Source: an uncultured Pseudomonadales bacterium (lineage in GTDB: Bacteria; Pseudomonadota; Gammaproteobacteria; Pseudomonadales; UBA7239). Taken from it: a DNA stretch of 64,000 bases. The notes under the pieces were generated by a model, which had not been told where the DNA came from, made no database searches, and saw nothing but the letters and a program-made list of their open reading frames with translations. Shown here one piece after another: positions 19,234-38,644 of this stretch (position 1 is the first letter of the stretch; each line of letters begins with the position of its first letter). The stretch is from contig CAZDWC010000009.1 of NCBI GenBank assembly GCA_964509075.1, positions 63,842 through 127,841 on the forward strand, in the 5' to 3' direction. A program made the position numbers and the translations under genes.

Positions 19234-19269
19234 TGGGCAAGCATGGCAGTAAACAGGGTGGAGTAGTGT

Positions 19270-19679: not shown

Positions 19680-21755
19680 GTGTCTATTGATATTTCGCAA
19701 TTTCATCAGGTTTTTTTCGAGGAAAGTCTCGAAGGTCTTGATGGCATGGAACAGGGATTGATGAATCTGGCGCTGGATGCCGTTGACAGCGAAACCATTA
19801 ATGCCATCTTTCGTGCAGCCCATTCCATCAAGGGCGGCAGTGCCACATTCGGCTTCTCGGCGATTGCCACATTTACCCATGTGCTGGAAACTTTGCTGGA
19901 CCAGATTCGCAATGGTCAGCGGCAAATCACACAGGCGCATGTCGATCTGTTTTTGCAGTCAGTGGATTGCCTGCGGCAGATGCTGGGAAGTTACCAGCAA
20001 CAACAGGAACCGGCTCCTGGTCTTTCCGCAAACCTGCAGTCGCAATTTGAGCAGATACTCAGTGGTGCAGAGCCGACAGCGGCAAAAGCGATATCCGTGC
20101 AAGATGCACAAGTCGTGTCCGGCTGGAATATCCGTTTCGTGCCCGAAAAACAAATGCTGGCTACTGGCAATGATCCCTTGCGCATGTTCCGTGAGTTGTC
20201 GGCAATGGGTGATACCCGTGTGCTGGCGCAGCTCGACAAATTGCCAACGCTGGATGAGTTGCACAGCGAGGATTGTTACCTGAGCTGGAATGTCGTCTTG
20301 CACGGAAACATTGATCATGATGCTGTCAGAGATGTTTTTGAATGGGTGACGGATGATGCCGAGGTTGTCATTGAAGCAATGCATGATGCCGGGATCGCTC
20401 AGGACCTTCCAAAGCCGCAGGTAGCAGAGCTGGATGCAGCTGCGCACGCATCACCAATACCGGTTTCAAAGCCAAAAGATATTTCACCCACAACAGCTTC
20501 AGCAAGCGCCGAGTCTTCATCCATCCGTGTGGCGATAGACAAGATTGATGCCCTGATCAATATGGTTGGCGAGCTGGTGATAACCCAGTCCATGTTGGGT
20601 GAATTGGGGAATGGCGATTTCGATATTTCCCGTTTACCAAAGCTTCAGGAAGGTTTGAGCCAGCTTGAGCACAATACGCGAGAGCTGCAGGAAAGTGTCA
20701 TGCGTATACGCATGTTGCCTATCAGTTTTGCTTTCAGTCGATTTCCGCGCATGGTGCGCGATCTTTCGCAAAGACTGGACAAGAAAATTGATCTGGTGAT
20801 GGTGGGTGAGAATACCGAACTCGACAAGACCGTGATGGAAAAAATCGGAGACCCACTGGTGCATCTGGTGCGCAATTCGGTGGATCACGGTATCGAGTCG
20901 CCGGAAATGCGTCGTGCTTCCGGCAAGGCGGAAACCGGCAGGATAACGTTGAATGCTTTTCATCAAGGTGGCAACGTCATGATCCAGATCTGTGACGATG
21001 GCGCAGGTCTCAATGTTGACAAGATACTCTCGAAAGCGATCGAGAAGGGGCTGGTTGGACATGATGAATCTCTCAGCCGGGAACAGATCCACGACCTCAT
21101 CTTTGCCCCGGGATTCTCAACGGCCGATGCCGTCAGTGATCTCTCCGGACGGGGCGTCGGCATGGATGTGGTACGAAGAAATATTCGCGATCTTGGCGGA
21201 ACCGTGGATGTGCGATCAGAGCCTGGCAAAGGTTCAACCTTCACCGTCCGTCTACCACTGACGCTGGCCATATTGGACGGTCAATTGGTGCGAGTGGGTG
21301 AGCAGACCTACATCCTGCCGTTGGTGTCTATTGTGGAGTCCCTGCAGGTTGATAGTGCCATGGTGAATGCTGTTGGCGGCGGCTGCAACGTGTTGCGTTT
21401 ACGCAATGAATACATTCCGATTGTTCGTCTCTACGAAGCTTTCAATATTGAGGCAGAGCATCGCGATCTGGAAGAAGGGTTGCTGGTTGTTGTTGAAAGT
21501 GCCGGCGAAAAAATTGGCCTTTTGGTTGATGATTTACAGGCGCAGCAACAAGTTGTCATTAAAAGTCTTGAGCAAAATTACCAACGGGTGGAAGGTGTTT
21601 CAGGAGCGACTATCCTTGGTGATGGCACGGTTGCGCTGATTCTGGATGTCACCGGTATCGTCCGTATTTCCGGGGTTCAACATCAGCAGCTACAGGATAC
21701 GCTGGTTTTCAGGAATCAGAGTCAGGCAATTTCGCACTCGGCTTCGATGGCCTGA
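19680..21755 (+). CDS. cheA: chemotaxis histidine kinase CheA
   Basis: 691 aa, GTG start. Hpt domain (RAAHSIKGGSATFG), HATPase (DDGAGL, GRGVGMDVV) and a C-terminal CheW-like domain. Confidence 0.93.
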   Translation: MSIDISQFHQVFFEESLEGLDGMEQGLMNLALDAVDSETINAIFRAAHSIKGGSATFGFSAIATFTHVLETLLDQIRNGQRQITQAHVDLFLQSVDCLRQMLGSYQQQQEPAPGLSANLQSQFEQILSGAEPTAAKAISVQDAQVVSGWNIRFVPEKQMLATGNDPLRMFRELSAMGDTRVLAQLDKLPTLDELHSEDCYLSWNVVLHGNIDHDAVRDVFEWVTDDAEVVIEAMHDAGIAQDLPKPQVAELDAAAHASPIPVSKPKDISPTTASASAESSSIRVAIDKIDALINMVGELVITQSMLGELGNGDFDISRLPKLQEGLSQLEHNTRELQESVMRIRMLPISFAFSRFPRMVRDLSQRLDKKIDLVMVGENTELDKTVMEKIGDPLVHLVRNSVDHGIESPEMRRASGKAETGRITLNAFHQGGNVMIQICDDGAGLNVDKILSKAIEKGLVGHDESLSREQIHDLIFAPGFSTADAVSDLSGRGVGMDVVRRNIRDLGGTVDVRSEPGKGSTFTVRLPLTLAILDGQLVRVGEQTYILPLVSIVESLQVDSAMVNAVGGGCNVLRLRNEYIPIVRLYEAFNIEAEHRDLEEGLLVVVESAGEKIGLLVDDLQAQQQVVIKSLEQNYQRVEGVSGATILGDGTVALILDVTGIVRISGVQHQQLQDTLVFRNQSQAISHSASMA

Positions 21756-21779
21756 GTTATTTCGCAAGAGGATCATGCA

Positions 21780-22340
21780 ATGTCAACAGTAGAGATGCAA
21801 TCGCAAGCGTCGACACGCGAGCTGGATATGCCGGTGACTGGCATGTTGTCAGACAGTGATCAATATCTCACCTTTATCATGAACAATGAAGAATACGGTG
21901 TGGATATTCTCTGTGTACAGGAAATTCGGGGCTGGGATAATGCCACGCCCTTGCCGAACGCGCCGCCACATATCAAGGGAGTGATCAATCTGCGTGGCAC
22001 AATTGTGCCTATCGTGGATTTACGCCAGTGCTTTGGTATGCAGTCGATTGAATATACAGCGGTGACCGTGGTTATCGTTTTGAAAATAAGGACAGAGGCA
22101 GGAAGTCGCACTGTGGGTATTGTGGTAGATGCGGTATCTGATGTGTATTCGCTATCGGATAACGAAATGAAAATGCCCCCGGATCTAGGCGAATCAGTTG
22201 ATGTTTCCTACATCAAGGGTCTTGTGACAGTAAACGGCAAGATGGTCATTCTGTTGCGTTTGGAAAAGCTGTTGGAAAGTAGCGCCTTACATCAGGAAGA
22301 AATGGGGGCCGCACTTGGCGGCTTGCGTCAATTGCATTGA
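21780..22340 (+). CDS. cheW: chemotaxis coupling protein CheW
   Basis: 186 aa. CheW-like domain (YLTFIMNNEEYGVDILCVQEIRGW...IKGVINLRGTIVPIVDLR). Confidence 0.9.
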   Translation: MSTVEMQSQASTRELDMPVTGMLSDSDQYLTFIMNNEEYGVDILCVQEIRGWDNATPLPNAPPHIKGVINLRGTIVPIVDLRQCFGMQSIEYTAVTVVIVLKIRTEAGSRTVGIVVDAVSDVYSLSDNEMKMPPDLGESVDVSYIKGLVTVNGKMVILLRLEKLLESSALHQEEMGAALGGLRQLH

Positions 22341-22384
22341 TTGGTTTTTTAACGTAGAGCCGAAATCTTAGGAGAGGTATCATC

Positions 22385-25300
22385 ATGAAGCTTCAGAAAG
22401 GAAAAGGTGATTTGCTGCGCAATATTCCTATTGCGTACAAAATGGGTGCGTTACTGCTTGTTGCTGCTGTGGCGGTGATTTTTCTCAGTATGAAGACTGT
22501 CAGCGCCATCAACGACAGTATCAGACTGACGCGCAGCGAGATGGGGGGGGCAAATTACATGCGCTCCATTCTCAAGATAACAAACGATTTTATGCCTGAA
22601 TATCGCGAGCATTTGGCTAGCTACCATTCGGGGTATGCGCCAGCGGCTAATGATTTGGGTAAAGTGCGTGCAGAAATTGATGCTCTGCAGAAAGAAGTGG
22701 TGTCGGCTAATGAGCAATACGGTGGTGTTATTGATGCATCAAGTGAGGTAAATCTCTTTCTGGATCAGTGGGAGAGTGTCAAGCGTGATGGTGCCGGGTG
22801 GAGCGTCAAGGAAGCGGAGGAAAATGTATCTGCTGCCATTATCACTGGTCAAAAAGCAGTGAAGAAAATTGCGGACAAGTCAGGATTGTCTTTGGATCCG
22901 CAGTCAGATACCTATTTTCTAATGGCAACACTAGTGGATGTATTGCCGGTGTCGATGGACTCGGCTGGTCATATCAAGGCAATTTCATCGCGAATTGAAT
23001 CTCTGTCAGAGGGTGCTCAGATTGCTTACTCTGAAGTTGGTTGGTTGGCTGGGTCGGCTAAATTATTGGAGGCCAACAATATTAATTTGTTGCGTTATCT
23101 TGGTACGGCCGCCCTGGAGAATGTTGCGCTCAAGGGTATTGCTGAAAATGCAGATAAATCTGTAAATAGCTCTAATGAGTTAATTGCTGTGGTGGGTAAC
23201 TTTCTTGAGGTTCAGAAAAAAAACACCAATATGAAAACCCTCGCAAGTAGTACCTATGATGAGCTTGATTTTTTGCATGACGAAGCTGATGGTATGCTTT
23301 ATAAGTTGCTTCAAGAAAGAGAACAGTCGCTGGTTTATGAGAGGAATGTATTGGTTTTTGAAATGGCATCTGTGCTGATATTCATGGTCGTCGTCTGCTA
23401 TATGGTGGCTATCGGTACAATCAGGCCTATACGTAGAATGACAGAAATATTCAAATTAATTTCACAGGAAAAGTACGATAACGAAATTACAGAGCAGCGA
23501 AAAGATGAAATGGGGGAGTTGTTGTGCGAGCTGGTTGGTATGCAGAACATGCTGAGGCAGTCTCGTGATGCAATGGTTGAGCAGATGCGTGAGACTACTC
23601 GGATCAAGCAGGGGCTTGATGCCGTAAATGCAAATGCCATGATTGCTGATCCGGATGGAAATATTGTCTATCTCAATAAATCGGTTTCTGAAATGCTCAA
23701 GGTGGCAGAAAGCGATATTCGCAAGGATTTGCCGAAGTTTGATACCGGAAAATTGATGGGGGCTAATATTGATGTCTTCCATAAGAATCCTTCGCATCAG
23801 CGCAATATGCTGGGTGCATTGAAGGACACTTATCGAGCCCAGATTGTAGTAGGCGGTCGCACGTTCTCGCTGATTGCGAATCCTATTTTTAATGAGGCCA
23901 ATGAGCGTTTGGGTACCATTGTCGAGTGGGCTGATCGCACGGAAGAGCTGGCTAAGCTTGAGCGTGAGCGCGTGGCCAATAACGCCAATGCCCGGACCAA
24001 ACAGGCGCTGGATTCCGTTACGGCCAACGCGATGATTGCTGACCCGGATGGCAACGTGGTTTATATGAACAATGCGGTGGAGAGCATGCTGCGCAATGTT
24101 GAAGCTGACCTGCGTAAGGCGCTTCCGCATTTCAGTGTTGATAAGGTTGTCGGTGCCAATATTGATATTTTTCACAAGAATCCTTCGCATCAGCGCAATC
24201 TTTTGGCTAACTTGACTACTACTTATCGGGCGCAAATTGAAGTGGCAGGAAAGACTTTTGCCTTGATCGCCAATCCTGTGAGCAATGAGCAGGGCGAGCG
24301 TATCGGCACGGTGGTTGAGTGGAACGACCGCACTGCTGAAGTCGCCATTGAAAAAGAAATTGATGTTCTGGTTGATGCTGCTTCGAGTGGTGACTTTACG
24401 CGTCAGGTTTCTCTGGACGGAAAAGTTGGTTTCTTCCTTAATCTGGCTAAAGGCTTGAACAAGCTGGTGGAGACTACGGAGTTAGGCATCAATGATGTGT
24501 TGCGCACTTTGGGTGCAATGGCCAAAGGCGATATGACCGTTCGTATTACTCGTGAATATCAAGGCGCATTTGAACAATTAAAGATTAACTCGAATGCCAC
24601 TGCAGAAAAACTCACCGAAATCATCAGTGAGATTAACCAGGCGGCAGCAACTATTTCTAACGGTGCCAATGAAATTGCGCAGGGCAATACCGATTTGAGC
24701 CAGCGTACGGAAGAGCAGGCTTCAAGTCTTGAGGAAACCGCGTCGAGCATGGAACAAATGACCAGCACTGTTAAACAAAGTGCCGAAAATGCCAAACACG
24801 CGAATAGTCTTGCGCAGGAGGCTCAGCAGAAAGCGCGCAGTGGTGGCGAAGTGGTGTCGAAAGCAGTGTCTGCGATGCAGGCGATCAACAGTGCTAGCAA
24901 GAAAATTGCCGACATCATTGGTGTCATTGATGAAATTGCTTTCCAGACCAACTTGCTCGCGCTCAATGCAGCGGTAGAGGCGGCGCGCGCGGGTGAACAG
25001 GGCCGGGGATTTGCTGTGGTGGCAGGTGAGGTGCGCAATCTCGCGCAGCGCTCGGCAGATGCGGCAAAAGAAATCAAAGGGCTGATTCAGGACAGTGTTG
25101 TCAAGGTTGAAGATGGTAGCAAGCTGGTCAATGAGTCAGGCTATACCTTGCAGGAAATTGTGGAAGCGGTGCAGAAAGTCAGTTCGATGATGCAGGATAT
25201 TGCCTCCGCTGCTGCTGAGCAGACTGCCGGCATCGAGCAGGTTAATACGGCTGTGACACAAATGGATGCAATGACGCAGCAAAATGCTGCGCTGGTGGAA

Positions 25301-25507
25301 GAGGCCTCGGCTGCCGGTGAAGCAATGGCCGAACAGGCATCCAATCTTGCGAAGATGATGCGCTTTTTTACGGTCGCAGGTATGGAGTCTTCTGCATTGA
25401 CAGCGCCAACCATGCGCGCGCCTCGCTCTGCACCAGCCAGGCAGATTTCTGCTCGTGCCACCAGTCGTTCCTCAGATTCTGCTGATGATGACTGGAATGA
25501 ATTCTAG
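22385..25507 (+). CDS. methyl-accepting chemotaxis protein with periplasmic domain, two tandem PAS domains and a C-terminal xWxxF pentapeptide
   Basis: 1040 aa. Two TM segments flank a periplasmic region of about 300 aa. These are followed by a HAMP domain, a duplicated PAS module (..[10 protein letters not shown].. twice), a second HAMP domain and the MCP signalling domain ([43 protein letters not shown]). The protein ends in ...DDDWNEF. Confidence 0.93.
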
Positions 25508-25572
25508 GCTTTTATGGCGGATAGTTTACGAGTGCGCGGATTGTTTTGATCGTTCATTTGAGAGTGGCAAGC

Positions 25573-26430
25573 ATGTTGCAGGACAGCAATTCGCATGAAC
25601 AGCGTGAATTTCCCATGTCGGAAGCCAATTTTTCGGCATTGAGCAAGCGCATTTATCACTTGGCTGGTATTAGTCTCAGTCCACATAAGAAACAATTGGT
25701 ATACAGCCGTATCGCAAAACGCATTCGCACGCTCGGACTGCGTTCATTTGATGATTATTGCCAGGTGGTAAATGATGATGATTCGCCAGAGATAACCGAA
25801 TTTATCAATGCTATCACAACTAACCTTACTTCTTTTTTCAGAGAGAATCATCATTTCGATTTTCTGAAAAGCCATGTGATTCCGGAGCTGAAGCAAGTGC
25901 ACCGTACAGACAGGCGCATACGCGTCTGGTCTGCAGGCTGCTCCACCGGTGAAGAGCCGTATTCCATCGCTGCGACCATGAATTCGCAATTAGCCAATGA
26001 GAATTGGGATTTGCGCATTCTGGCTACAGATCTGGACAGCAATGTACTTGCCCATGCCAGGCAGGGCATCTATGCCTCTGACAAGGTTGAGTCACTGGAT
26101 GACGTGCAAAAAAAACTTCTGTTCGAACGTCGCAATCAGGATGGAGCTATGGCGGTCAAGCAGTCTCTGCGACAGCTGATCACTTTCAATCAGCTGAACC
26201 TGATGCAAAATTGGCCGATGTCAGGTCCATTCGATGTTATTTTCTGTCGGAATGTGATGATCTATTTTGACAAGCCGACTCAGAAGCAGTTATTTGAAAA
26301 ATTCCACAGTCTTTTATCGAACAGCGGCTATTTGCTAATCGGGCACTCGGAGTCCATGCATGGCATGGACAGGAAGTTTCGCAATCTGGGCAAGACCATG
26401 TATCAGAAGGCAGCTACATGGAGCGCCTGA
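25573..26430 (+). CDS. cheR: chemotaxis protein methyltransferase CheR
   Basis: CheR N-terminal helical domain plus a SAM-MTase domain (RVWSAGCSTGEEPYSIA, FCRNVMIYFD). ATG 25573 is chosen over the upstream TTG 25546. Confidence 0.9.
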   Translation: MLQDSNSHEQREFPMSEANFSALSKRIYHLAGISLSPHKKQLVYSRIAKRIRTLGLRSFDDYCQVVNDDDSPEITEFINAITTNLTSFFRENHHFDFLKSHVIPELKQVHRTDRRIRVWSAGCSTGEEPYSIAATMNSQLANENWDLRILATDLDSNVLAHARQGIYASDKVESLDDVQKKLLFERRNQDGAMAVKQSLRQLITFNQLNLMQNWPMSGPFDVIFCRNVMIYFDKPTQKQLFEKFHSLLSNSGYLLIGHSESMHGMDRKFRNLGKTMYQKAATWSA

Positions 26431-27092
26431 TTGCTGGAAGGGAGATGCGTTCGGCCATGCCGCCGTGGCCTCCAGTGCGTCAGGAATTTCTGCACGTCAA
26501 CCGATATTGGGATAACCAGAACCAGTGTTTTGTGGCCAAGATACTTCCCGGTGAGTTTTTTGTATCGGAGCATGGCGAGGCAGTCGCCACGACGCTGGGC
26601 TCCTGTATATCTGCATGCGTCCGTGATCCGTTCCGCGGTGTTGGTGGCATGAATCACTTCATGTTGCCTATCCAGGGAGAAGGCAATGAATGTTGGCAGA
26701 AGGATTTCAACAGTTTGCCGTCGCGTTACGGCAACTGGGCGATGGAATACCTGATTAATGAGGTCATGAAATATGGCGGCAAGAAGCACAATCTAGAAGT
26801 GAAAGTTGTCGGTGGCGGGCATGTGCTGAGCGGCATGAGACAGAATCCTGTCGGCGAGAGAAATATTGAATTTGTTTTTGACTGGTTGAAGAAAGAGGGT
26901 TTTACCATTTCCGGTTCAGATGTGGGTGACAAGTATCCACGTAAGGTGATGTATTTTCCTGAAACAGGTGCGGTGAGAGTCAAGAAGCTGCGTACCTTGT
27001 CCAATGAGACAATCGCCCAGCGTGAGACTGCATATCAACGTACTATCGAGAAAGATTCAGGTAAGGATGCTGGAAATGTCGAATTGTTCTGA
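26418..27092 (+). CDS. cheD: chemoreceptor glutamine deamidase CheD
   Basis: 224 aa. CheD pattern (TTLGSCISACVRDP, GGMNHFMLP). It overlaps the cheR end by 13 nt. Confidence 0.85.
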   Translation: MERLIAGREMRSAMPPWPPVRQEFLHVNRYWDNQNQCFVAKILPGEFFVSEHGEAVATTLGSCISACVRDPFRGVGGMNHFMLPIQGEGNECWQKDFNSLPSRYGNWAMEYLINEVMKYGGKKHNLEVKVVGGGHVLSGMRQNPVGERNIEFVFDWLKKEGFTISGSDVGDKYPRKVMYFPETGAVRVKKLRTLSNETIAQRETAYQRTIEKDSGKDAGNVELF

Positions 27093-27115
27093 TAACTGGA
27101 GTTGAGGTGTAACTC

Positions 27116-28189
27116 ATGGAACAGGCTAAGAGCAGGGCTTCAGGACAGACGATCAGGGTTGTTGTGGTCGATGATTCTGCTGTCATACGTGCTGTATTGA
27201 AGGAAATTCTGGAATCGGATACCCGTATTGAAGTGGTGGCTGTGGCTGTCGATGCTCATGATGCCCGTGAAAAAATCAAGCAGTTCAATCCGGATGTCAT
27301 CACTCTGGATATTGAAATGCCGCGCATGGATGGCATCACGTTCCTGCGCAATATCATGCGCCTGCGGCCAATGCCGGTTGTGATGGTATCCACACTGACA
27401 GCGGCGGGTGCGCCTGTGACGCTGGAAGCGCTGGAAATTGGTGCCATTGACTACATAGCCAAGCCGCAGGCGGGTAATGGTGATCTCAGAGACTATAGTG
27501 CGACTATCATTCACAAGGTGGTGGGAGCTGCGCGTGCGAATGTGCGCGCGATGGATGACGTTCGCGCCCAGCAAGGCCAGCACACCCAGTTGACTTTGCC
27601 GGCCGGTAAAAAGTTACGGCATAACTACCTGTGCGCGATTGGTGCATCTACGGGTGGCACAGAAGCAATCATGCAAGTGGTTTCAATGTTGCCGGCCAAT
27701 TCACCGCCTGTCGTGATAACCCAGCATATTCCTGAAGCATTCAGTACCTCTTTTGCACAACGGCTCAATTCTCGCTGTGCCATTACTGTCTATGAGGCCA
27801 AGGATGGACAACTTGTTGAACCGGGCTGTGCCTATCTCGCTCCCGGTGATGACCATCTGTTGATCCGCAAGTCTGCGCGCGGATATGTCTGTGTGCTTGA
27901 AAAGTCGGAGAAGGTGAATCGGCACAGGCCGTCTGTCGATATGTTATTTGATTCGGTTGTTCAGGCAGCGGGGGATAATGCCTGCGGCATATTGTTGACC
28001 GGCATGGGAGCCGACGGCGCGAAAGGTTTGCTGAACATGCGCATGGCCGGTGCAATAACCGTGGCGCAGGATGAGTCTACCAGTGTGGTATGGGGTATGC
28101 CCGGTGCTGCAGTCAAGATGGACGCTGCCTGCAAGGTGTTGCCCTTGCACAAGGTGGCGCAGTTTATCCTGCATGATGCATTTGTATGA
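27116..28189 (+). CDS. cheB: chemotaxis methylesterase/response regulator CheB
   Basis: 357 aa. Receiver (VVVDDS, ITLDIEMPRMDG) plus a methylesterase domain (IGASTGG, MGADGA). Confidence 0.92.
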   Translation: MEQAKSRASGQTIRVVVVDDSAVIRAVLKEILESDTRIEVVAVAVDAHDAREKIKQFNPDVITLDIEMPRMDGITFLRNIMRLRPMPVVMVSTLTAAGAPVTLEALEIGAIDYIAKPQAGNGDLRDYSATIIHKVVGAARANVRAMDDVRAQQGQHTQLTLPAGKKLRHNYLCAIGASTGGTEAIMQVVSMLPANSPPVVITQHIPEAFSTSFAQRLNSRCAITVYEAKDGQLVEPGCAYLAPGDDHLLIRKSARGYVCVLEKSEKVNRHRPSVDMLFDSVVQAAGDNACGILLTGMGADGAKGLLNMRMAGAITVAQDESTSVVWGMPGAAVKMDAACKVLPLHKVAQFILHDAFV

Positions 28190-28317
28190 TGAACAAATTT
28201 GCAAACTTTTATGCAAGGCTGGATAGCTTGTCTATAGTTAGAAAAGAGGATCAACGCCGTCAGGTGCTGATCATGGCACAACCCGGTTTTGAACAGCAAT
28301 GTTGAAAAGAGGATGTT

Positions 28318-28623
28318 ATGAGCTTTACAACTGATTATTCGAATGCAAGTCACGAGCTTAAAATCAACATTGAGGGGCGTTTCGATTTCAGTGCCCATCA
28401 GGAATTTCGCAATTGCTATGAAAGCCTGAATGACAAGCCGGGTGCATATTGTCTTGATATGGCTTCTGCAACGTATCTGGACAGTTCTGCACTGGGTATG
28501 CTTCTGCTGCTCAGGGATCATGCCGGTGGCGACAAGGCGAATATCCGTATCGTGAATTGCAACCCGGATGTCAAAAAAATACTTACGATTTCCAACTTCC
28601 AGCAGTTGTTTACTATCCAGTAG
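28318..28623 (+). CDS. STAS-domain anti-sigma-factor antagonist (HsbA/SpoIIAA-like)
   Basis: 101 aa. Has the canonical phosphorylatable motif YLDSSALGMLLLL. AGAGGA lies upstream of the ATG. Confidence 0.85.
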   Translation: MSFTTDYSNASHELKINIEGRFDFSAHQEFRNCYESLNDKPGAYCLDMASATYLDSSALGMLLLLRDHAGGDKANIRIVNCNPDVKKILTISNFQQLFTIQ

Positions 28624-28635: not shown

Positions 28636-30351
28636 ATGTTCAGATCGGCGCGGTTGCCGGATGCCAACCCTTCGATACTGCTGGTATCGAATTCGGAGGC
28701 GGACTCCGGTTATATAGGCGAAATTGTCAAGGCTGACCGATACTCACTGGTGTCGTGCAGTGATGCAGAAAGGGCGTTGGGGCTTTTCGAGATCAATGCC
28801 TATGACATCGTCTTGCTTAATGAGACCTTCACGGCTGACTGTATCGTCGATTTGATATCACGATTGCGGCAGGCTGCGGCAGAGCGTTTTGTACCTGTAG
28901 TCCTGTTGCTGAAAGATCAGGACAGTTATTACCTCTCCGATTACATCAATGCCGGCGCTGATGATTTTCTCTCATGGCCCATCCAACCGGATATCCTGCT
29001 GGCAAAGTTGCGTCTGTCCAACCAGATGCGCTTGATGCAGGCGACACTTCAGCATCAGCGCGACCAGATCCGTTTGCACAATGATCACTTGCTGCAGGAG
29101 CAGCAGGTGGCCAAACGCATTTACGACAATATCACCAGCAGTGGTTGTTTGAGCGCTGAAAATATCCGCTATTTCATGTCGCCGATGGCCATGTTCAATG
29201 GCGACATACTGGTTGCCGCGATGCGTCCATCAGGCAATATGCTCATCTTGCTGGGCGATTTCACCGGCCACGGTTTGCCGGCTGCTATCGGCGCGATCCC
29301 GCTGTCTTCCGCATTTTATGGCATGGTACACAAGGGTTTTGAGTCTGAAGATATTCTTCGTGAAATCAACCAGAAGGTGAAGGCGGCGTTGCCTGTGGGA
29401 TTTTTTTGTTGTGCCTGCATGGTTGAACTGGACTTGTACGAGCAGACAGTTATGGTCTGGAACGGCGGCATGCCGGATGCTTACCTGCTGCATGAAGATT
29501 CGACTATTGAAACCATTGCCTCCAGTCATGTTGCATTGGGCGTGCTCGACAATCGGCAGTTTGATGCGAGATTCCAGCGCTATGCGATGCAGACGGGCGA
29601 CAGGCTTTTTCTGTGGACGGACGGCATTATTGAAGCGACCAATGCCGACGGCAGTATGTTTGGGGAGGACAAGCTGCGCAAGGTTTTTGACACAGGTATT
29701 GCCTCTGACGATTTGATGCGTGATGTCTGTGTGGCTGTTGATGAATTTATCGGTGATGGCAGCAGCAGTGATGATGTGTCTATCGTCGAAATCAGCATGG
29801 TCAATCCGGAAAGTGTCAACATCCAGGAAAACAGCTCTCTGGCACAAACCACCCAGACAGCGCCAACGGACTGGTCAATGAGTTTTGAAATATCGCCGGC
29901 TGCCGCAAGGGCTGGCAGCCCGATTCCCATGATGATGAACTTGCTGCTAGAGGTGCCGGGTTTGCGCCAACACAGCAGTTCTATTTTCACTATCCTGACA
30001 GAGCTGTATTCGAATGCACTGGAGCATGGCATTCTTGGTCTCGACTCGGCCGCCAAGCATTCTGCCAATGGCTTTCTCGACTATTACACGGAGCGTGACA
30101 GACGCCTTGCCGAAGTGGAGGGTGGCAGCATCGCTTTTCATATGCGTCATGTTGCCGATGCGGAAGGTGGTCAGCTGACAATCTCTGTGCATGATTCCGG
30201 CCCTGGCTTCGATTACGAAAAGTGCCATAAAGCATCCAACAGTTTCAGTGGTCGCGGCATCATGCTGCTGGAGCAGCTGTGTGAATCCCTGCATTATTGT
30301 GGTAACGGCAACCAGGTCGAAGCCGTTTATCGCTGGCGTGATTATCGCTGA
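28636..30351 (+). CDS. HsbR-like fusion: degenerate receiver + PP2C (SpoIIE) phosphatase + RsbW-type Ser kinase (HATPase)
   Basis: 571 aa. An N-terminal REC-like fold lacks the conserved acidic/Thr/Lys residues. PP2C motifs are present (GDFTGHG, WTDGIIEA, DDVSIVEI). The C-terminus has a GHKL ATPase (LYSNALEHG, HDSGPGFD, GRGIMLL). Confidence 0.85.
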   Translation: MFRSARLPDANPSILLVSNSEADSGYIGEIVKADRYSLVSCSDAERALGLFEINAYDIVLLNETFTADCIVDLISRLRQAAAERFVPVVLLLKDQDSYYLSDYINAGADDFLSWPIQPDILLAKLRLSNQMRLMQATLQHQRDQIRLHNDHLLQEQQVAKRIYDNITSSGCLSAENIRYFMSPMAMFNGDILVAAMRPSGNMLILLGDFTGHGLPAAIGAIPLSSAFYGMVHKGFESEDILREINQKVKAALPVGFFCCACMVELDLYEQTVMVWNGGMPDAYLLHEDSTIETIASSHVALGVLDNRQFDARFQRYAMQTGDRLFLWTDGIIEATNADGSMFGEDKLRKVFDTGIASDDLMRDVCVAVDEFIGDGSSSDDVSIVEISMVNPESVNIQENSSLAQTTQTAPTDWSMSFEISPAAARAGSPIPMMMNLLLEVPGLRQHSSSIFTILTELYSNALEHGILGLDSAAKHSANGFLDYYTERDRRLAEVEGGSIAFHMRHVADAEGGQLTISVHDSGPGFDYEKCHKASNSFSGRGIMLLEQLCESLHYCGNGNQVEAVYRWRDYR

Positions 30352-30526
30352 TCGTTCTGGTTTGAATTCCTGGCAATTTTAATCCGTTGCCGGCAATATC
30401 TTGCCGTATTCCCCGAATACATATTACAAGCCCTGTATTCTTTCAGTGTGTTGCATTGTGCTGCCTTTTGGCAGCATTCTTGCTTTATATGCCTCGATTG
30501 TTTTGATTGCTGTCGAGGATATGACG

Positions 30527-32065
30527 ATGGAATTGTTGCCTTTACCCGTATTTTCTCCTGTTGGTGCTGCAGGCAATGATCGATCGTCTGCATTTCAGGG
30601 CGAAATGCATGAACAGCCGGACACCGGTTTTGCCAGTTTGTTTCACGAGCGCCTTTCAGCTGCGCCATCGTCGCAACATTTTCAAACTTCAATATCTTCT
30701 GCAGCCCGCGATTATCATCGTGAGCGTCCGCTGGATTCTTCCAGAGCTTTGGATGAGCCGGATTGCAGTGGCACGCGCGATAGCGGGATTGAATCTGGCG
30801 GGTATGATCTGCCACGCGAAGCCGGCCGTGACGAAGTGTCTCTTGCGGCTAGCGGTGAATCTTCTTCTCAGCCACTGCGTGAAGACGGATATGAAAAGGA
30901 AAATGAGCACGAGACACATGGTGCTGATTCCATGTTGCAGGGTAACAAGACTGATGAAGACACAACTATCCCTGTCAGTCTTGGTGTTGTAGAGATGGAA
31001 GACATGTCGGGGGAAAAATCATTGGCGACTGACTTCGCTGTATTCGAAGGTAGCGATGCTGATTCACTTTCTCTGCTGGAGATGTCGTTGATTCCGTTGG
31101 GTTCGCAGTTCGCTGCGGATGTAGGCGAGGATGTCGAAGGACTTGTCGAAGAACTCGCGGCAGATGCAGGCGACTCGGACGATGCGATGCTGCTCGATGA
31201 TGCAGACCTCGCGTTGCCTGTGTGGATCGCCCAGGCATTCATCGCACCGGCAGCAGCTGGGGCAGTTGCCGGTGATGCTACTGATACTGTGTCATTGCTG
31301 CCAGGCACTGCAGATGCTGCGCTCGGCAAGGCCCTTCAGGCTTGGCTGGCACAGGATGAGGTTATACAAAGCAGCTCCGCAGGCATTGATGCGGATGCGA
31401 ACGCTCCGTCATCGCCAGCTTTCGCGGTTGCAACACAGGTGTTGCAGACGGGTAATTCATCCGCATTGCGCGAGGCTATTTCGGCTGCGGTATTGCAATT
31501 ACAGTCCGTGCCGGCGCGGACGGCGGATACGGCGCCAGTGGCGATGGGCGAGTTCGATGAGGGTGTTGACGTTGCTACATCCTTGACGGGTATCGCGCAC
31601 AACACAGCTGCAATGCGTGTGCAGGCAATGACGCCGCAGCAGGCGCTGCAGCAGGCCGGCGTGATGGCGGAAAAGCTCGCGGCACAGATCGTCTGGATGC
31701 AGTCCCAGCATATTCAGCGCGCGGAAATGCGTTTGTCGCCGGAAAATCTGGGGCCGTTGCAGATTCAGCTGGATATCCAGCGCGACCAGGCCAGTGTCAG
31801 TGTCAGTTCTGCTCATCAGCAGGTGCGTGAGTGGCTTGATGCCGGTCAGTTCCGTCTGCGCGATTTACTGGGCCAGAGTGGTCTGCAATTGTCTTCCTAT
31901 TCGGTGTCGGATCACGGCAGTCATAATGCCCAGCAACAGCAGGGTGAAGAAGGTGCGCGGCAGCAGGCCACTGGAACTGGCATCGCACAGCCTGATAACC
32001 ATGATGAGCCTGAGGCCATTGTGCCGCTGCGCATGGGAATTGGCTTGGTGGATAATTACGCCTGA
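30527..32065 (+). CDS. fliK: flagellar hook-length control protein FliK
   Basis: Acidic, low-complexity central region. C-terminal Flg_hook domain (MRLSPENLGPLQIQLDIQRDQASVSVSSAHQQVREWL). GAGGA lies 7 nt upstream of ATG 30527; ATG 30521 and TTG 30401 are alternative starts. Confidence 0.8.
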   Translation: MELLPLPVFSPVGAAGNDRSSAFQGEMHEQPDTGFASLFHERLSAAPSSQHFQTSISSAARDYHRERPLDSSRALDEPDCSGTRDSGIESGGYDLPREAGRDEVSLAASGESSSQPLREDGYEKENEHETHGADSMLQGNKTDEDTTIPVSLGVVEMEDMSGEKSLATDFAVFEGSDADSLSLLEMSLIPLGSQFAADVGEDVEGLVEELAADAGDSDDAMLLDDADLALPVWIAQAFIAPAAAGAVAGDATDTVSLLPGTADAALGKALQAWLAQDEVIQSSSAGIDADANAPSSPAFAVATQVLQTGNSSALREAISAAVLQLQSVPARTADTAPVAMGEFDEGVDVATSLTGIAHNTAAMRVQAMTPQQALQQAGVMAEKLAAQIVWMQSQHIQRAEMRLSPENLGPLQIQLDIQRDQASVSVSSAHQQVREWLDAGQFRLRDLLGQSGLQLSSYSVSDHGSHNAQQQQGEEGARQQATGTGIAQPDNHDEPEAIVPLRMGIGLVDNYA

Positions 32066-32143: not shown

Positions 32144-32722
32144 ATGGCTTTTGAATTGCCTGCGCTGCCCTACGCCAAAGATGCTCTCGCCCCACACATT
32201 TCTGCTGAAACGCTGGAGTTCCACTACGGCAAACATCACCAGGCCTATGTCACCAATCTGAACAATCTGGTACCGGGCACTGAATTTGAAGGCAAGAGCC
32301 TGGAAGAGATCATCAAATCTTCCAGTGGTGGTATTTACAACAACGCTGCACAAATCTGGAATCACACCTTTTACTGGAATTGCCTGACACCGAATGGCGG
32401 TGGCGAGCCTACGGGTGCGCTGGCGGATGCCATCAACAAGGCTTACGGTTCTTTCGCGGCGTTCAAGGAAAAATTCAGCACGATGGCAGTAGGCAATTTC
32501 GGTTCTGCCTGGACCTGGCTGGTGAAAAATGCCGATGGTTCGGTCGAGATTGTCAACATGGGGGCTGCCGGTTGCCCGATGGTAGATGGCAAGAAAGCGC
32601 TGCTGACTTGCGATGTATGGGAACATGCCTACTACATCGACTACCGCAACTTGCGTGCAAAGTATGTCGAGTCATTCTGGAATCTGGTCAACTGGGATTT
32701 TGTGGCCAAAAATTTCGGCTGA
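32144..32722 (+). CDS. sodB: iron superoxide dismutase
   Basis: 192 aa, near-collinear with E. coli SodB (AFELPALPYAKDALAPHISAETLEFHYGKHHQAYVTNLNNL ... DVWEHAYYIDYRN). Confidence 0.95.
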   Translation: MAFELPALPYAKDALAPHISAETLEFHYGKHHQAYVTNLNNLVPGTEFEGKSLEEIIKSSSGGIYNNAAQIWNHTFYWNCLTPNGGGEPTGALADAINKAYGSFAAFKEKFSTMAVGNFGSAWTWLVKNADGSVEIVNMGAAGCPMVDGKKALLTCDVWEHAYYIDYRNLRAKYVESFWNLVNWDFVAKNFG

Positions 32723-32740
32723 GATTCACGGTGAAAGTCA

Positions 32741-32767
32741 GGCGCCCCGTTTTGCGGGGCGTTTTTG
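32741..32767 (+). terminator. rho-independent terminator of sodB
   Basis: GGCGCCCCG-tttt-GCGGGGCG followed by TTTTTGTTT, about 20 nt after the stop. Confidence 0.75.
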
Positions 32768-32806
32768 TTTGGGTCGGATTGGCCTGTTTTAAAAGAGTAC
32801 CTTGCA

Positions 32807-33655
32807 ATGATCAAACCCCGACGTTCCGTGCTGTACATGCCGGCCAGCAATGCACGCGCGCTGGAAAAAGCCAGAGGCTTGCCGGCAGATTGCGTGATCC
32901 TGGATCTGGAGGATGCCGTGGCGCCGGCGCAGAAAGCAGCAGCGCGCGAGCAGGCGGTGCAGGCTGTCAGGGCCGGCGGTTATGGCCAGCGTGAGCTGGC
33001 CATTCGCATCAATGCCGAAGGCAGCGAGTGGTTTGCCGAGGATTTTGCCGCTGTGGCGAAAAGTGGTGCGGATGCCATTGTGCTCCCCAAGGTGGAGAGT
33101 GCGGCGACCGTGCAGCGTGTAGCTGATCAATTGCCCGAGGGCATGGCGGTATGGGCTATGATCGAAACGCCCTTGGGGGTCATGCAGGTTGACGAGATCG
33201 TATTCGCACACCGTCGCTTGCAGGTGCTGGTAATGGGAACTTCCGATCTCGCCAAGGAATTGCGCGTGCCGCATCGGGTCGATCGACTGGGATTTTTGTA
33301 CAGCCTGGGTCGCTGTGTGGTGGCAGCCCGCGCTGCGGGGCTCGATATTATTGATGGTGTTTATCTGGACCTGGCAGATGGCGAGGGTTTTGCTGCCATG
33401 TGCGAGCAGGGATTGGCGCTTGGCTTTGATGGCAAATCGCTGATCCATCCGGATCAGATTGCTGTTGCCAACAAGGTGTTTGCGCCATCGGCTGCAGACG
33501 TCGCCCAGGCCGAGCGTATTTTGCAAGCATGGTTTGAGGCGGAGCAGGCTGGCAGTGGGGTGGCGGTGCTGGACGGCAAACTGGTGGAGAATCTGCATGC
33601 GGCTGAGGCGGAGCGCCTGTTGGTCCTGGCGGCTGCCATTGCTGAGAGGGGCTGA
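32807..33655 (+). CDS. HpcH/HpaI aldolase / citrate lyase beta (CitE)-like acyl-CoA lyase
   Basis: 282 aa (RRSVLYMPASNARALEKA..DCVILDLEDAV...LPKVES). CitE/malyl-CoA lyase-type signature. Confidence 0.85.
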   Translation: MIKPRRSVLYMPASNARALEKARGLPADCVILDLEDAVAPAQKAAAREQAVQAVRAGGYGQRELAIRINAEGSEWFAEDFAAVAKSGADAIVLPKVESAATVQRVADQLPEGMAVWAMIETPLGVMQVDEIVFAHRRLQVLVMGTSDLAKELRVPHRVDRLGFLYSLGRCVVAARAAGLDIIDGVYLDLADGEGFAAMCEQGLALGFDGKSLIHPDQIAVANKVFAPSAADVAQAERILQAWFEAEQAGSGVAVLDGKLVENLHAAEAERLLVLAAAIAERG

Positions 33656-33788
33656 CCGTTTGTCCGTTGCCGGCCGGGCTTTGTCTTGCTGGGGTTTATC
33701 CGTGCCGACAGGCTGCTAAGGTTAAAGAAGGAAGATAATGTGAGAGGGAGGCTCTGGTCGTCCCGACTCGTTGAGGAGGAATACAGCC

Positions 33789-34082
33789 ATGGGCAATGCC
33801 ACAGAATTACTGGATGTGATCGCGGTCAGCCTGCCGGTATCGGATCGGTTGGAGCAGCATCGAAGGGAATTGGTCGGCAAAGTGGAGGTGCGCTTTCAGG
33901 GCATGCCGGATCGTTCGGAGAAGCTGGCTCAGGCGCTGACTGATTTACTGGTGGAAGAAGGCGTGGTGTTGTCCGATACCGATACGCTGCGAGATCTGGT
34001 TCTGGAGTATCTGGAGATCAACAAGAAGCAGTCGGCACTGGGGCAGGATGAAATGGATTTTCTTAATGAATTCCTCAAGTAA
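33789..34082 (+). CDS. hypothetical protein (97 aa)
   Basis: GAGGAGGA lies about 9 nt upstream of ATG 33789. The product is acidic and helical. No motif recognised. Confidence 0.5.
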   Translation: MGNATELLDVIAVSLPVSDRLEQHRRELVGKVEVRFQGMPDRSEKLAQALTDLLVEEGVVLSDTDTLRDLVLEYLEINKKQSALGQDEMDFLNEFLK

Positions 34083-34179
34083 AACCTATAACTAATTGAT
34101 AATTAACACAATTAATTTTTTTGCGTGTTGCTGATATTTTAGATTATCCAGCATTAATAATGCGATGTATCTATTTGAT

Positions 34180-34875
34180 TTATTTGAAATTGTATTCGCT
34201 GGTTGGCAGTCTGTCCATTTTGTCAAAATCAATGAAGCGTTTGCAGCTGGCATACATCTGTTTCTGGTTGCTGGCGAGTTCTTCAGGGCTGTTGCGCCGG
34301 TAGAAGGCGTTCTGGTCTGTCATGGCATCCGGGGGGAAATTTTCTTCGACGATGGCGTCAATCTGTGGTGCGTCAGGGGTTAGCGCCCGCACCACGATAT
34401 TCTGCCGGTAGCCGAAGGTTTCCTGGGTGTCTATGGCAATCGGGGTGTGTTGCTGCAACCACAGCTCCAACCACTGTTCGCGCGTCAATCGCGGCGGGAT
34501 TTGCAGCAATACGATGTGATTCATGCCGTAAACACGCTCTCCCTCTGCTGCGGGGTGGCGGGTGTTCGGCAAGGGTTCGGATTCGCAGACACTGTAGCCG
34601 GCGAGTCGTTCGCAGTGCCCGGCCAGCAGTTCTTCTGCTGGTGGGGATTGGCTGGCGCTGTCCAGCCAGAAGCTCAGCACCGCATCTGCCGAAGGCGCAA
34701 GCTGGCTAAGGCGCATGTTGGTAGCGGGCAGCACTGCTTCATCGGCGAGGTTGAGACGAAAGCGCTGTGCACCGGCGGCGCGCAAGCTGGCCAGCAGGGG
34801 ATCACGCAGCCTCTCATGCCAGTGGCTGCTTGGCAGTGCAGAGGGTTTCCATAACAGGTAGGTCAGTTTTTCCAT
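34180..34875 (-). CDS. hypothetical protein, possibly tandem EthD-like (dimeric alpha/beta barrel) domains
   Basis: 231-aa ORF. Two segments begin like EthD domains (MEKLTYLLWKPSALPSSHWHERL and MNHIVLLQIPPRLTREQWLELW). The functional call is weak. Confidence 0.6.
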   Translation of the reverse strand: MEKLTYLLWKPSALPSSHWHERLRDPLLASLRAAGAQRFRLNLADEAVLPATNMRLSQLAPSADAVLSFWLDSASQSPPAEELLAGHCERLAGYSVCESEPLPNTRHPAAEGERVYGMNHIVLLQIPPRLTREQWLELWLQQHTPIAIDTQETFGYRQNIVVRALTPDAPQIDAIVEENFPPDAMTDQNAFYRRNSPEELASNQKQMYASCKRFIDFDKMDRLPTSEYNFK

Positions 34876-35017
34876 GGCGGCGAGTCTGTCGAATAGGTAG
34901 TGTGAACTGGGTCAGGTTTACGCAGATCCATTCTGCTTGCAAGGGTATACGGGCTTTTTTGCGGTAGATACTTGGAGTAAATTGCTGGAGACGGAATTGT
35001 TCGCAGAAGGGCAGCGC

Positions 35018-36685
35018 ATGCATGTACAGGAAAGACCCGACGTGACAGTGGTGCCAGCGTCTACAGCCAATTCTCCACAAGACATGAAAAAGTGGTTGCG
35101 CACGGCCACGCCCAAAACCCTCGCTGAATGGACTGACAAACTGCCGCGCAGCAATCTATCGGCCGTGGCGCACAGCCAGATGCAGGCGCTGAAAGCACTG
35201 GATGAAGTGGATATGCAGCCGATGCAGAAATTTGCGTTGCTGGATGTCTTGCGCGCCGGCGCCTATCACACGGTCGAAAGCCTCACCAGCGGCTTCATGG
35301 GCAATGCCTCCGGTTTCAGCGACGAGTTCAAGAACATCATAAACCAGGCCATGCTGTTGCAGGGGCAGTTGGCATCGTCTTATACCAATGTTGCCATCAG
35401 TGCGCGTCTACTGGGTCCACAGCAGCTATTCATCATGGGTAGTGCCGTGCATCGCGCCATTGTTGATCAGTACAGCATGTTGTCGTTCTACCTGCAGCTC
35501 TATCTGCCGGTACCGCAGCAGTTGTGGCGACAGTTGCATCGCTTGTTCAAGGTGGCCGAAGAGGCGCAGCTGCTGGCGCATGTCATGGGTGACAACGTTT
35601 TTGTCAGCGAACAGATGCTGACCATCAAACAGATCTATCTGGCGGCGTTGTTGCTGGGTTGTGCGCGCTGCAACCAGATGCAGGCCGAAGATGTGGCAGC
35701 CACGGCCAAGGCGCTGAAAAAATGGGCTTTACACGCCGATCTGGGAAAACAGCAGGAAACCGGACACTCTCATCAGCTGGCGGTGGATGTAGACAGTGGC
35801 AGCAGCCCGTGCTTCGAGCCTCTTGAATCATTGGCCCAGGGCAACTGGCGTTACTTGCATACACGAAAACTGGTGGCACACCTGCAGAAACAATCCGGGC
35901 TCTCGGTGAAAATCGGCGAGCGCAATATCACGATTGGCGATGATTTGCTCAAGCATCTGGTGTCAGCCTGGAGTGAGTACGTCGAGCGCGACAACACCCG
36001 CCATGAACGAGAAGATGCGGTGACGTCCAGCATCGGCCTGGATGCACTGCATTATTATCTGACCGGAGCCTTGGCGGTTGAGGATTTCATAGGTGAGTTG
36101 CAGCCGGCTGCTCCAGTTCCATCGCCCAGGAAACTGGTTATGGGTGATATTCCGGAAGAATTCAATTTCCGCGCCTATTTGCCCGCGGATATCAACAATC
36201 TCGAGCAGGCACGTTTCCCGTGCCATGACGTGCGTGTGATTAATGAAAGTGTCGGCGGCTATTGCCTGGAATGGCCACAGGATATTCAGGAGTCGATGCT
36301 GGTTGGCGAAATTATTGGTATCAAGGAGTCATACGCGCCGTACTGGAAAGTGGGTGAAGTTGTGTGGATGAAAAAAACCGAGGATAACCGTATCCGTGTC
36401 GGGATTCGCACGCTCAGCAATGAAGCTATTCCGCTGGTTGCCAAGGTGCCGCAGACCATGGGGCAGCGTGGAGACAAGTTGCCAAGCCTGTTGCTGCCCA
36501 AGGATCGTGATCTCGGCAATGACAAGACCACATTCCTGGTGCCCAATGTGAAGTTGCGTATGGGTGAGCAACTGCGGGTTGTACAGGAGGGCAATGAGCA
36601 GTCTATCCAGCTGCTGGAGCCGGTGAAAGAAACCAGCGCCTATAGCCAGTTTGATTGTGCCTATCTGGTCGTGCAGAAAACCTGA
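35018..36685 (+). CDS. hypothetical protein with C-terminal PilZ-like barrel (NxSxxG present, RxxxR absent)
   Basis: 555 aa from ATG 35018; the ORF is open from 34937. The C-terminus reads ...[21 protein letters not shown]...[11 protein letters not shown], which resembles the second half-motif of PilZ. Confidence 0.65.
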
Positions 36686-37317
36686 TGAAAATGCTGCAAT
36701 TACCGACAGTAGCCCAGGCCTTGCCCGGACGTGATCAGCCCATGCCGGTGCCTGCTGAACATGCGGTATTGCATACACCCTTGCTGCCACCATTTCCGAA
36801 GGGTATGGCTGTGGCCATGTTCGGCATGGGCTGCTTCTGGGGGGCAGAGCGCAAGTTCTGGAAAGTATCAGGCGTTTACAGTACAGCGGTGGGTTATGCC
36901 GGCGGCTTGACGCCTAACCCGACCTACGAAGAAGTCTGTTCGGGCCTGACCGGACATAACGAAGTGGTGCAGGTGGTATTTGATCCCGCTCTGGTCAATT
37001 TTGAGGATTTGCTGAAAGTTTTCTGGGAAGGCCATAACCCGACTCTGGGCATGCGTCAGGGCAATGATATCGGCACCCAGTATCGTTCAGGCATTTATTG
37101 CGTCACACATCAGCAACTCGAAGAGGCTGCTGTGAGCCGGGCGCGCTACCAACAGGCTCTCGATACACAGGGCTTGTGTATCACAACGGAAATCCTGCCG
37201 GCACCGGTGTTTTACTATGCCGAACCCTACCACCAACAGTATCTGTACAAGAATCCTGATGGTTATTGCCCGGCCATCGGTTACGAAGCCTGCGGATTGC
37301 CTGCGTTTCCTGCCTGA
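36685..37317 (+). CDS. msrA: peptide-methionine (S)-S-oxide reductase MsrA
   Basis: [13 protein letters not shown] active-site motif. The ATG overlaps the upstream stop (TGATG). Confidence 0.93.
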
Positions 37318-38144: not shown

Positions 38145-38339
38145 GCGCAGGAAGCCAGTGAAAGAATTATGGAGATTCTGTAGCGGAATCCGGTTGTCGG
38201 TATTGATAGTTGTCAACGATGCCCGCAGGCCAAACTATCATGAAGGACGGGCGCCTACCAAGTGCAGCGGGCACAATTGCTGGTCCTGTGCTAGATATAA
38301 AAGGTATGCCGAATATATGGCTGCTATAAAGTGACGAGA

Positions 38340-38603
38340 ATGGACGATAAGAAAGGGGCTGTGCGCACGCGCATCGCTCTGAGAGTCAAGGTCAGCAACC
38401 ACAGCAGCCACTGGTACTTCAGGACGGTTGACCTGTCCGATATGGGAATTTTTATTGCGGCAGATACCCCGGTACTGGCTGTTGACGATGTGGTTGACGT
38501 CCAGGTCCAGGATTTGCCTGGTGACGCTCCTGTCTTGCCCATGCGTGTTGTACAGGCAACGGCAGAGGGCTACGACCTCGTATTTGTTAGTGTTGCCGGC
38601 TGA
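38340..38603 (+). CDS. single-domain PilZ protein (c-di-GMP receptor candidate)
   Basis: 87 aa. Has RxxxR (RTRIALR) and DxSxxG (DLSDMG) with normal spacing. GTG 38331 is an alternative start. Confidence 0.75.
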   Translation: MDDKKGAVRTRIALRVKVSNHSSHWYFRTVDLSDMGIFIAADTPVLAVDDVVDVQVQDLPGDAPVLPMRVVQATAEGYDLVFVSVAG

Positions 38604-38644
38604 TCATTTTCGGTAAGTCGTTGTATTTATGCGGTGTTTTCGGC

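Follow-up and report, generated by a model that had tools for sequence, protein, structure and literature searches.

Introduction

The HptB–HsbR–HsbA system of Pseudomonas (PA3345–PA3347 in P. aeruginosa; hsbAR-hptB-fliK in P. putida) is a partner switch in which unphosphorylated HsbR acts as a kinase for HsbA Ser56, the residue at which HsbA of P. aeruginosa is phosphorylated (PMC6482189), and is turned into a phosphatase by HptB~P. HsbA splits between FlgM, which frees FliA, and HsbR, which frees RpoS, and the switch sets the availability of FlgM/FliA and of RpoS (PMC6482189, PMC5085249, bioRxiv 10.1101/2024.11.25.625174). Here we analyze a stretch of 64,000 nucleotides (the window) from contig CAZDWC010000009.1 of an uncultured Pseudomonadales bacterium, in which an open reading frame (ORF) at 28636–30351 encodes a 571-residue HsbR-like protein whose receiver domain has lost all five of its signature residues. 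This protein is probably an HsbR orthologue, encoded at a conserved slot of the flagellar region within a small group of uncultured Pseudomonadales from which the HptB phosphorelay input has been lost.

As in the Pseudomonas loci, the regulator joins a receiver, a PP2C phosphatase and a HATPase domain (REC-PP2C-HATPase), and its gene directly follows one for a STAS protein with Ser56; the phosphatase and kinase motifs are intact, and the placement between fliJ and fliK is also as described for P. putida (bioRxiv 10.1101/2024.11.25.625174). The locus differs in that the receiver is without the DD pair, the acceptor D, the T and the K, and in that hptB is absent. It further carries a seven-gene che cluster and a STAS-like ORF between fliJ and hsbA, a feature common to 32 listed canonical relatives.

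A more remote likeness exists with CrsR–CrsA, the RpoS partner switch of Shewanella oneidensis, which likewise consists of a three-domain regulator and a STAS antagonist linked to che genes; the che1 locus of this organism contains cheY/A/W/R/D/B genes, an Aer2-type receptor and crsA/crsR (PMC9855816). CrsR is, however, only 25.5% identical to HsbR (PMC6482189), and the flagellar context of the window gene is not described for it. RsbU-type phosphatases and RssB (P. aeruginosa, 3EQ2 and 3F7A; E. coli) share with the window protein a sensor joined to PP2C by a long signal-carrying helix, and studies of RsbU and RssB point to an action of N-terminal sensors on PP2C dimers via crossing linker helices (PMC12143880). 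RssB differs in having a phosphorylatable receiver and no C-terminal kinase domain; moreover, the degenerate domain is PP2C in E. coli RssB but the receiver in the window protein.

Receivers of the latter kind have been catalogued as aspartate-less receivers (ALR; a detected receiver without the acceptor Asp) and pseudo-receivers (PsR; lacking any of the five conserved residues) (PMC12632262). About 2% of all PF00072 domains are without the Asp (PMC12632262), and Maule et al. [quoted passage not shown] The window receiver has the fold of this class without its phosphotransfer residues, and its losses of Pro at D+4 and Gly at D+8 and its retention of alpha4-beta5-alpha5 fit the trends reported there (PMC12632262). 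What sets it apart within the class is that all five residues are replaced together, and that the loss of the phosphodonor gene is visible at a syntenic site.

Results and discussion

Gene and domain layout

The ORF has an ATG start, and the public gene calls on three identical contigs match it; three Logan contigs match the window at every base. Pfam recognizes Response_reg (residues 14–125), SpoIIE/PP2C (199–386, 132 bits) and HATPase_c_2 (454–563), so that the HsbR/CrsR-type order of domains is present in one polypeptide. The folds closest to the model of the 571-residue protein are P. aeruginosa RssB (REC-helix-PP2C), the RsbU and RsbW domains of M. tuberculosis Rv1364c, and the PP2C domain of SiaA. 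Together with an identity of 41–47% to HsbR proteins annotated at NCBI, these matches confirm the HsbR-like architecture proposed in a first-pass annotation of the window. The gene and its parts are as follows.

28636–30351, + strand: hsbR-like gene, fusion of pseudo-receiver, PP2C and HATPase (RsbW-type kinase, anti-sigma); ORF, Pfam, 41–47% identity to NCBI-named HsbR
28672–29016, + strand: pseudo-receiver, residues 13–127; alignments, predicted fold, PF00072 score
28687–28689, 28690–28692, 28819–28821, 28909–28911 and 28975–28977, + strand: signature codons for S18, N19, N62, L92 and W114, respectively
28987–29205, + strand: alpha5 and long linker helix (residues 118–167; region taken to 190); model helix, 87–90% identity to P0002 (see below)
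29206–29799, + strand: PP2C (SpoIIE/RsbU-type) phosphatase, residues 191–388; Pfam 132 bits, 81% identity to P0002
29926–30342, + strand: HATPase_c_2 (RsbW/SpoIIAB-type Ser kinase, anti-sigma), residues 431–569; Pfam, invariant N/G1/G2 columns

The receiver has lost its phosphotransfer residues

In an ungapped HMMER alignment to D1 of PleD, a domain that can be phosphorylated, S18-N19 of the window protein stand at the position of the DD pair, N62 at that of the acceptor Asp, L92 at that of the Thr and W114 at that of the Lys, and MAFFT alignments with 14, 64 and 199 homologues place these residues in the same columns. Among the 200 closest family members the signature reads DDDTK in 194 and EDDTK in four; the other two are the window protein (SNNLW) and P0002 (SSSLY), its single close relative (67% identity). 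In the AlphaFold model the domain is a regular (beta-alpha)5 receiver, with a mean predicted local distance difference test (pLDDT) score of 86.8 for the whole protein and above 90 over residues 13–127. The signature residues occupy the C-terminal ends of beta1, beta3, beta4 and beta5, and alpha5 continues as one long helix (residues 118–167) into PP2C.

The replacement of all five residues, which the first-pass annotation had read from a hand alignment, is thus upheld by HMMER, by MAFFT and by the model: the multiple alignments place no Asp at the acceptor position, and the PF00072 score of the window receiver is 29.6 bits within the whole protein and 32.9 bits in isolation (gathering score 30.2), as against 89 and 94 bits for two canonical HsbR receivers; P0002 scores 21.2 bits. 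Pro at D+4 and Gly at D+8, which are typical of working receivers (PMC12632262), are replaced by T66 and I70. The domain falls within the definitions of both ALR and PsR, and outside that of a strict HptB-dependent HsbR, for which DD, D, T and K are required. It is a pseudo-receiver that is unable to accept phosphate on Asp.

A misleading alignment, in which the acidic neighbor of the acceptor position (E63; Asp in P0002) is still phosphorylated, is extremely improbable. Both degenerate orthologues do retain an acidic D+1 residue; the three independent alignments and the structure model nevertheless agree and are free of gaps around beta3, the metal-binding DD pair, the T and the K are all absent, and hptB is gone. 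On these grounds the D+1 residue was rejected as the true acceptor.

hptB is missing from its usual site

The genomic neighborhood was compared with those of relatives found by scanning species-representative genomes, which gave at least 80 canonical loci at 40–47% identity; the 80 that are listed come from Cellvibrionaceae, Marinimicrobium, Thalassolituus, Oceanobacter, Marinobacter, Hahella and others, and the window's own genome is not among them. Two layouts occur, both between fliI/fliJ and fliK: fliJ-hsbA-hsbR in 35 of the 80, and, as in the window, fliJ-(STAS)-cheY-cheA-cheW-mcp-cheR-cheD-cheB-hsbA-hsbR in 32, the remaining 13 loci being too short for the layout to be called. The window gene thus occupies the orthologous fliJ–fliK slot, the order there being fleQ-fleS-fleR ... 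fliF-G-H-I-J, STAS-like ORF, cheY, cheA, cheW, chemoreceptor, cheR, cheD, cheB, STAS, hsbR, fliK, sodB. The flanks of the slot and the site at which hptB would be expected are listed here.

18305–18775, + strand: fliJ, 5' flank of the fliJ...fliK slot; TIGR02473 at 31.7 bits (curated cutoff 50.45, not reached) and position directly after fliI
30352–30526, no strand: hsbR-fliK spacer, the hptB site in canonical relatives, with a sigma54-like motif TGGCAGCATTCTTGCT at 30469–30484; HptB model and tblastn negative
30527–32065, + strand: fliK (hook-length control), 3' flank; Pfam Flg_hook, public gene call (the maximal ORF starts at 30401)

A hidden Markov model (HMM) of HptB was built from the small ORFs just 3' of hsbR. 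At 79 of the 80 listed canonical loci it detects an HptB gene as the immediate 3' neighbor of hsbR, and the lone locus without one is a 2.1-kb contig that ends right after hsbR. In the window, hsbR abuts fliK. The HptB HMM matches nothing in the 64 kb except the P1 domain of CheA (E = 0.11), and no remnant of hptB is detected by tblastn in the 175-bp spacer. The P0002 contig has the order mcp-cheR-cheD-cheB-STAS-X-fliK, X being the hsbR homologue, as in the window, and is also devoid of hptB. The gene is therefore present at 0 of the 2 degenerate loci versus 79 of the 79 informative canonical ones: in the degenerate lineage, hptB is gone from an otherwise near-universal position. The absence of an adjacent hptB that the first-pass annotation had reported accordingly holds for the window as a whole.

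The acceptor residues and the donor gene have been lost together, and this coincidence is the strongest argument for a receiver that has truly ceased to be phosphorylated. The earlier claim that Asp phosphorylation cannot drive the switch between kinase and phosphatase is supported by the receiver itself and gains strength from the loss of a gene that 79 of 80 canonical relatives keep.

The spacer contains a good sigma54-type promoter motif, TGGCAG-N5-TTGCT, some 40 bp upstream of where fliK starts, which is consistent with the FleQ/sigma54-dependent PfliK of P. putida; a hairpin from a terminator scan (30458–30477) overlaps it. Downstream, the flagellar operon of the window ends at fliK, and 32144–43617 holds sodB, an HpcH/HpaI aldolase gene, msrA and other metabolic genes, not fliLMNOPQR-flhB; the canonical loci that were examined continue with fliL after fliK. 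Since the P0002 contig is also non-flagellar after fliK, the operon break seems to be common to the clade.

The phosphatase, the kinase and the HsbA partner are intact

In alignments of 15 and 65 sequences, the metal-binding PP2C residues D190, D208-x-x-G-H-G (D208 lying in GDFTGHG), D329-G and D379-D380 all fall in invariant columns, as do the N-box (E456/N460/H464-G465), G1 (D520-x-G-x-G) and G2 (G539-R-G) of the kinase. Directly upstream of hsbR lies the gene for the presumed substrate.

28318–28623, + strand: hsbA-like STAS anti-sigma-factor antagonist, Ser56 codon at 28483–28485; Pfam STAS, TIGR00377

Its product is 56–78% identical to the STAS proteins encoded next to canonical hsbR. The motif L-D-S56-S-A-L-G-M-L-L is invariant in all 84 STAS sequences beside hsbR homologues, and Y53, which precedes it, is present in 83 of them, the other having His. 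Both the intact catalytic motifs and the STAS partner of HsbA type thus stand as the first-pass annotation had given them.

The cheB-hsbA spacer (28190–28317) contains CTATAGT at 28232–28238, a -10-like element with an upstream C that resembles sigmaS-type promoters, as a pattern match alone. Transcription of hsbA in P. putida is RpoS-dependent.

Relaxation is confined to the receiver

To see where constraint has been retained, the identity between the window protein and P0002 was compared by segment with that in 235 canonical pairs of equal PP2C divergence.

Receiver, residues 13–56: identity 0.20; canonical mean 0.81, minimum 0.66
Receiver, residues 57–85: identity 0.41; canonical mean 0.91, minimum 0.72
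Receiver, residues 86–127: identity 0.71; canonical mean 0.95, minimum 0.83
Linker, residues 128–190: identity 0.87; canonical mean 0.91, minimum 0.78
PP2C, residues 191–388: identity 0.81; canonical mean 0.81, minimum 0.78
HATPase, residues 431–569: identity 0.67; canonical mean 0.74, minimum 0.63

The receiver is the best-conserved domain in canonical HsbR and the worst-conserved between the window protein and P0002. It has evolved about 5 times faster than expected, with a gradient from the N- to the C-terminus, and the relaxation is confined to it; P0002 in addition has 16 extra residues inserted in its alpha1 region. Canonical proteins have 44 receiver positions with a conservation of 95% or more; the window protein retains 15 of them and P0002 retains 14, mostly in beta4-alpha5, and the alpha5-linker segment is the best-conserved part of the whole protein. 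The N-terminal half of the receiver is now almost free of constraint, while the alpha4-beta5-alpha5 face, the alpha5/linker helix, PP2C, the RsbW-type kinase and the Ser56 site of HsbA are still conserved. The two proteins also have derived residues in common in the former pocket and in alpha4-beta5-alpha5, among them S18, T64, F65, L92, K/R93, D94, Y103, W/Y114, P118, D119 and L122.

The erosion of the receiver, the loss of hptB and the absence of fliLMNOPQR after fliK, in the window as in the P0002 contig, might be taken to mean that the whole module is a decaying, non-functional remnant in a flagellar region under rearrangement. This is very unlikely: identities between the orthologues in PP2C (81%), linker (87%) and kinase (67%) fall inside the canonical range, no catalytic residue has been lost, the Ser56 motif of HsbA is intact, frameshifts and stops are absent, and the adjacent flagellar and che genes are full length.

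The derived pocket residues could alternatively point to a pseudo-receiver that senses a small ligand or a Ser/Thr modification at a reshaped pocket (S18, [E/D]63, T64, F65, L92, [K/R]93, D94, [W/Y]114). These residues are identical or conservatively alike in both orthologues while other positions of the N-terminal half drift, and there are precedents for non-phosphoryl inputs, such as c-di-GMP in the pseudo-receiver of ShkA (reviewed in PMC4395418, PMC12632262, PMC7010744). However, no ligand-binding motif was recognized in the domain, the pattern comes from two sequences, and the differences between them at the acceptor position (N vs S) and at the Lys position (W vs Y) suggest tolerance rather than a precise site. 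We regard such a sensor as quite improbable.

The neighboring chemosensory cluster

The che genes between fliJ and hsbA form the following block.

18955–28189, + strand: chemosensory cluster of STAS-like ORF, cheY, cheA, cheW, HAMP/PAS methyl-accepting chemotaxis protein (mcp) gene, cheR, cheD and cheB; Pfam

By gene content and order alone, cheY-cheA-cheW-soluble HAMP/PAS receptor-cheR-cheD-cheB fits the F7-type (Che2/Che1-like) set, the chemoreceptor being a 1040-residue HAMP/PAS protein. The first-pass annotation had suggested contact with these Che proteins as the replacement input. By binding CheY~P, CheA or the array, for example, the pseudo-receiver would place the HsbA switch under the control of the Che cluster, without phosphotransfer. 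The che genes, hsbA and hsbR are indeed co-oriented and closely spaced; the che1 locus of S. oneidensis holds crsA/crsR, and Che1 has been suggested to act in RpoS regulation (PMC9855816); and an independent acceptor-less variant, P0277, whose acceptor position is occupied by Thr, likewise has cheR-cheD-cheB-mcp-STAS as its neighbors. Yet the same che block lies directly upstream of hsbA-hsbR at 32 of the 80 listed canonical loci, each of which has hptB and a receiver with DD-D-T-K. This makes the che linkage an ancestral trait, older than the degeneration and independent of it, and not a substitute for HptB; that the linkage compensates for the missing HptB was rejected. Moreover, residues 13–56, which include alpha1, the usual docking face, are 20% identical between the degenerate orthologues, which would be unexpected for a newly selected interface, and CheY and the CheB receiver of the window are ordinary.

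With the linkage ancestral and the alpha1 face least conserved, Che contact as input finds no specific support and appears unlikely. Its more particular form, in which after the loss of HptB the adjacent Aer2-like array came to control the HsbA switch by binding CheY~P or CheA, is less likely still; if true, it would tie a chemoreceptor signal directly to the availability of FliA and RpoS without phosphotransfer.

Base composition differs slightly along the che/hsbA stretch (19680–28623). The G+C fraction is 0.45–0.54 in most che genes and hsbA, compared with about 0.54–0.59 in the flanking flagellar genes. At third codon positions it is 0.50–0.56 in most che genes, 0.615 in cheY, 0.51 in hsbA and 0.60 in hsbR, while the flagellar genes have about 0.59–0.63, with fleQ at 0.68 and fliK at 0.53. 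In windowed counts the lowest value is found at the chemoreceptor gene (45.6% over 22–24 kb). The difference is too small to argue for horizontal transfer of the che-hsbA-hsbR block.

The STAS-like ORF at the head of the cluster (18955–19233, + strand, 92 residues), between fliJ and cheY, is the second STAS-domain ORF of the region and has homologues at the same place in several che-linked canonical loci, among them L017, L019, L027 and L054. It has Cys at the position of HsbA Ser56 (K-I-D-C-A-G) and is therefore probably not phosphorylatable.

A proposed scaffold role for the receiver

The first-pass annotation had concluded that the protein must use another input. This does not follow, since a constitutive or locked pseudo-receiver fits the data equally well, and pseudo-receivers are often constitutive or dimeric through alpha4-beta5-alpha5 (PMC12632262, PMC4395418); the solved ones are commonly constitutive dimers via this face (PMC12632262). 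We propose that the window protein still phosphorylates and dephosphorylates HsbA and would thus run the partner switch without phosphoryl input. The receiver would survive as a structural, probably dimerizing scaffold by which the linker helix is kept in a single register, and the balance between kinase and phosphatase would be fixed, or set by expression level and the supply of ATP or metal rather than by a phosphoryl signal. The shared derived residues suggest that the locking of a conformation was a single event, in the common ancestor, and has persisted since. As the PP2C domain is fully conserved, it can be argued that the locked state still allows phosphatase activity.

Several points weigh against this proposal of a locked scaffold. 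The support consists of sequence comparison and structure prediction, and the AlphaFold model was built on an alignment dominated by canonical receivers. The sequence does not tell a kinase-biased from a phosphatase-biased locked state. With two known members in the clade, the derived residues that they share stand for a single evolutionary event. The need to translate the downstream domains may be what has kept the fast-evolving N-terminal half in frame, and its open frame does not by itself prove that this half has a function. Finally, the absence of hptB covers the 64-kb window, and hptB or another partner could lie elsewhere in the genome.

Recurrence of acceptor-less receivers in the architecture

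A HMMER search of 1.84 billion cluster representatives was used to survey the architecture, and the best 150 clusters at 50% identity were taken. A receiver is detectable in 137 of these and none is recognizable in 13. Among the 137, the signature is DDDTK, EDDTK or DDDSK in 107, and about 30 deviate at one or more positions. Inspection of the alignments showed the acceptor Asp to be lost in at least eight of the best 150 clusters besides that of the window, the position being taken by G, S, S, T, R, G, E or N. In all four acceptor-less variants with readable context (P0239, P0225, P0188 and P0277) a STAS gene lies upstream; for a fifth, P0279, the contig begins at the gene itself and the upstream side is unreadable. 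An HptB-like gene was not found near any of the five, two of whose contigs are short. The P0277 locus (L089, a scaffold of ENA ERZ23495177; gene at 4427–6184) has the order cheR-cheD-cheB-mcp-STAS-X, after which come genes for a hybrid histidine kinase and for a double-receiver protein.

The degenerate HsbR clade itself consists of two 90%-identity clusters among 5.8 billion. No further members were found in the JGI metagenome collection with a clade-specific degenerate DNA pattern that is positive on the window, nor in a metagenome scan that used an alignment of the two degenerate N-terminal regions as the query.

The case is therefore less exceptional than the first-pass annotation implied: acceptor-less receivers recur in this architecture and belong to a class already known to be enriched (PMC4395418). 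The locus reveals no new principle, as earlier work had already catalogued receivers of this kind on kinase/phosphatase modules, and they are recurrent in the HsbR-type architecture. What is new is the loss of hptB and of the acceptor at a syntenic site, and the confinement of relaxation to the receiver. This provides an unusually clean before-and-after comparison between canonical relatives, with the same gene order and an HptB input, and two uncoupled orthologues. The on/off control of pseudo-receivers is an open question (PMC12632262), for which the locus offers a natural comparison; it would reveal which state of an HsbR-type protein an uncoupled receiver locks in, and which receiver surfaces are structural rather than signaling.

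Elsewhere in the window, and unrelated to the hsbR-like gene, an ORF at 6364–7779 on the + strand encodes a 471-residue protein in which six DUF5122 beta-propeller repeats are accompanied by a thrombospondin type 3 repeat. It lies in a stretch of low G+C content (50%, as compared with about 56–60% in the adjacent 2-kb windows).

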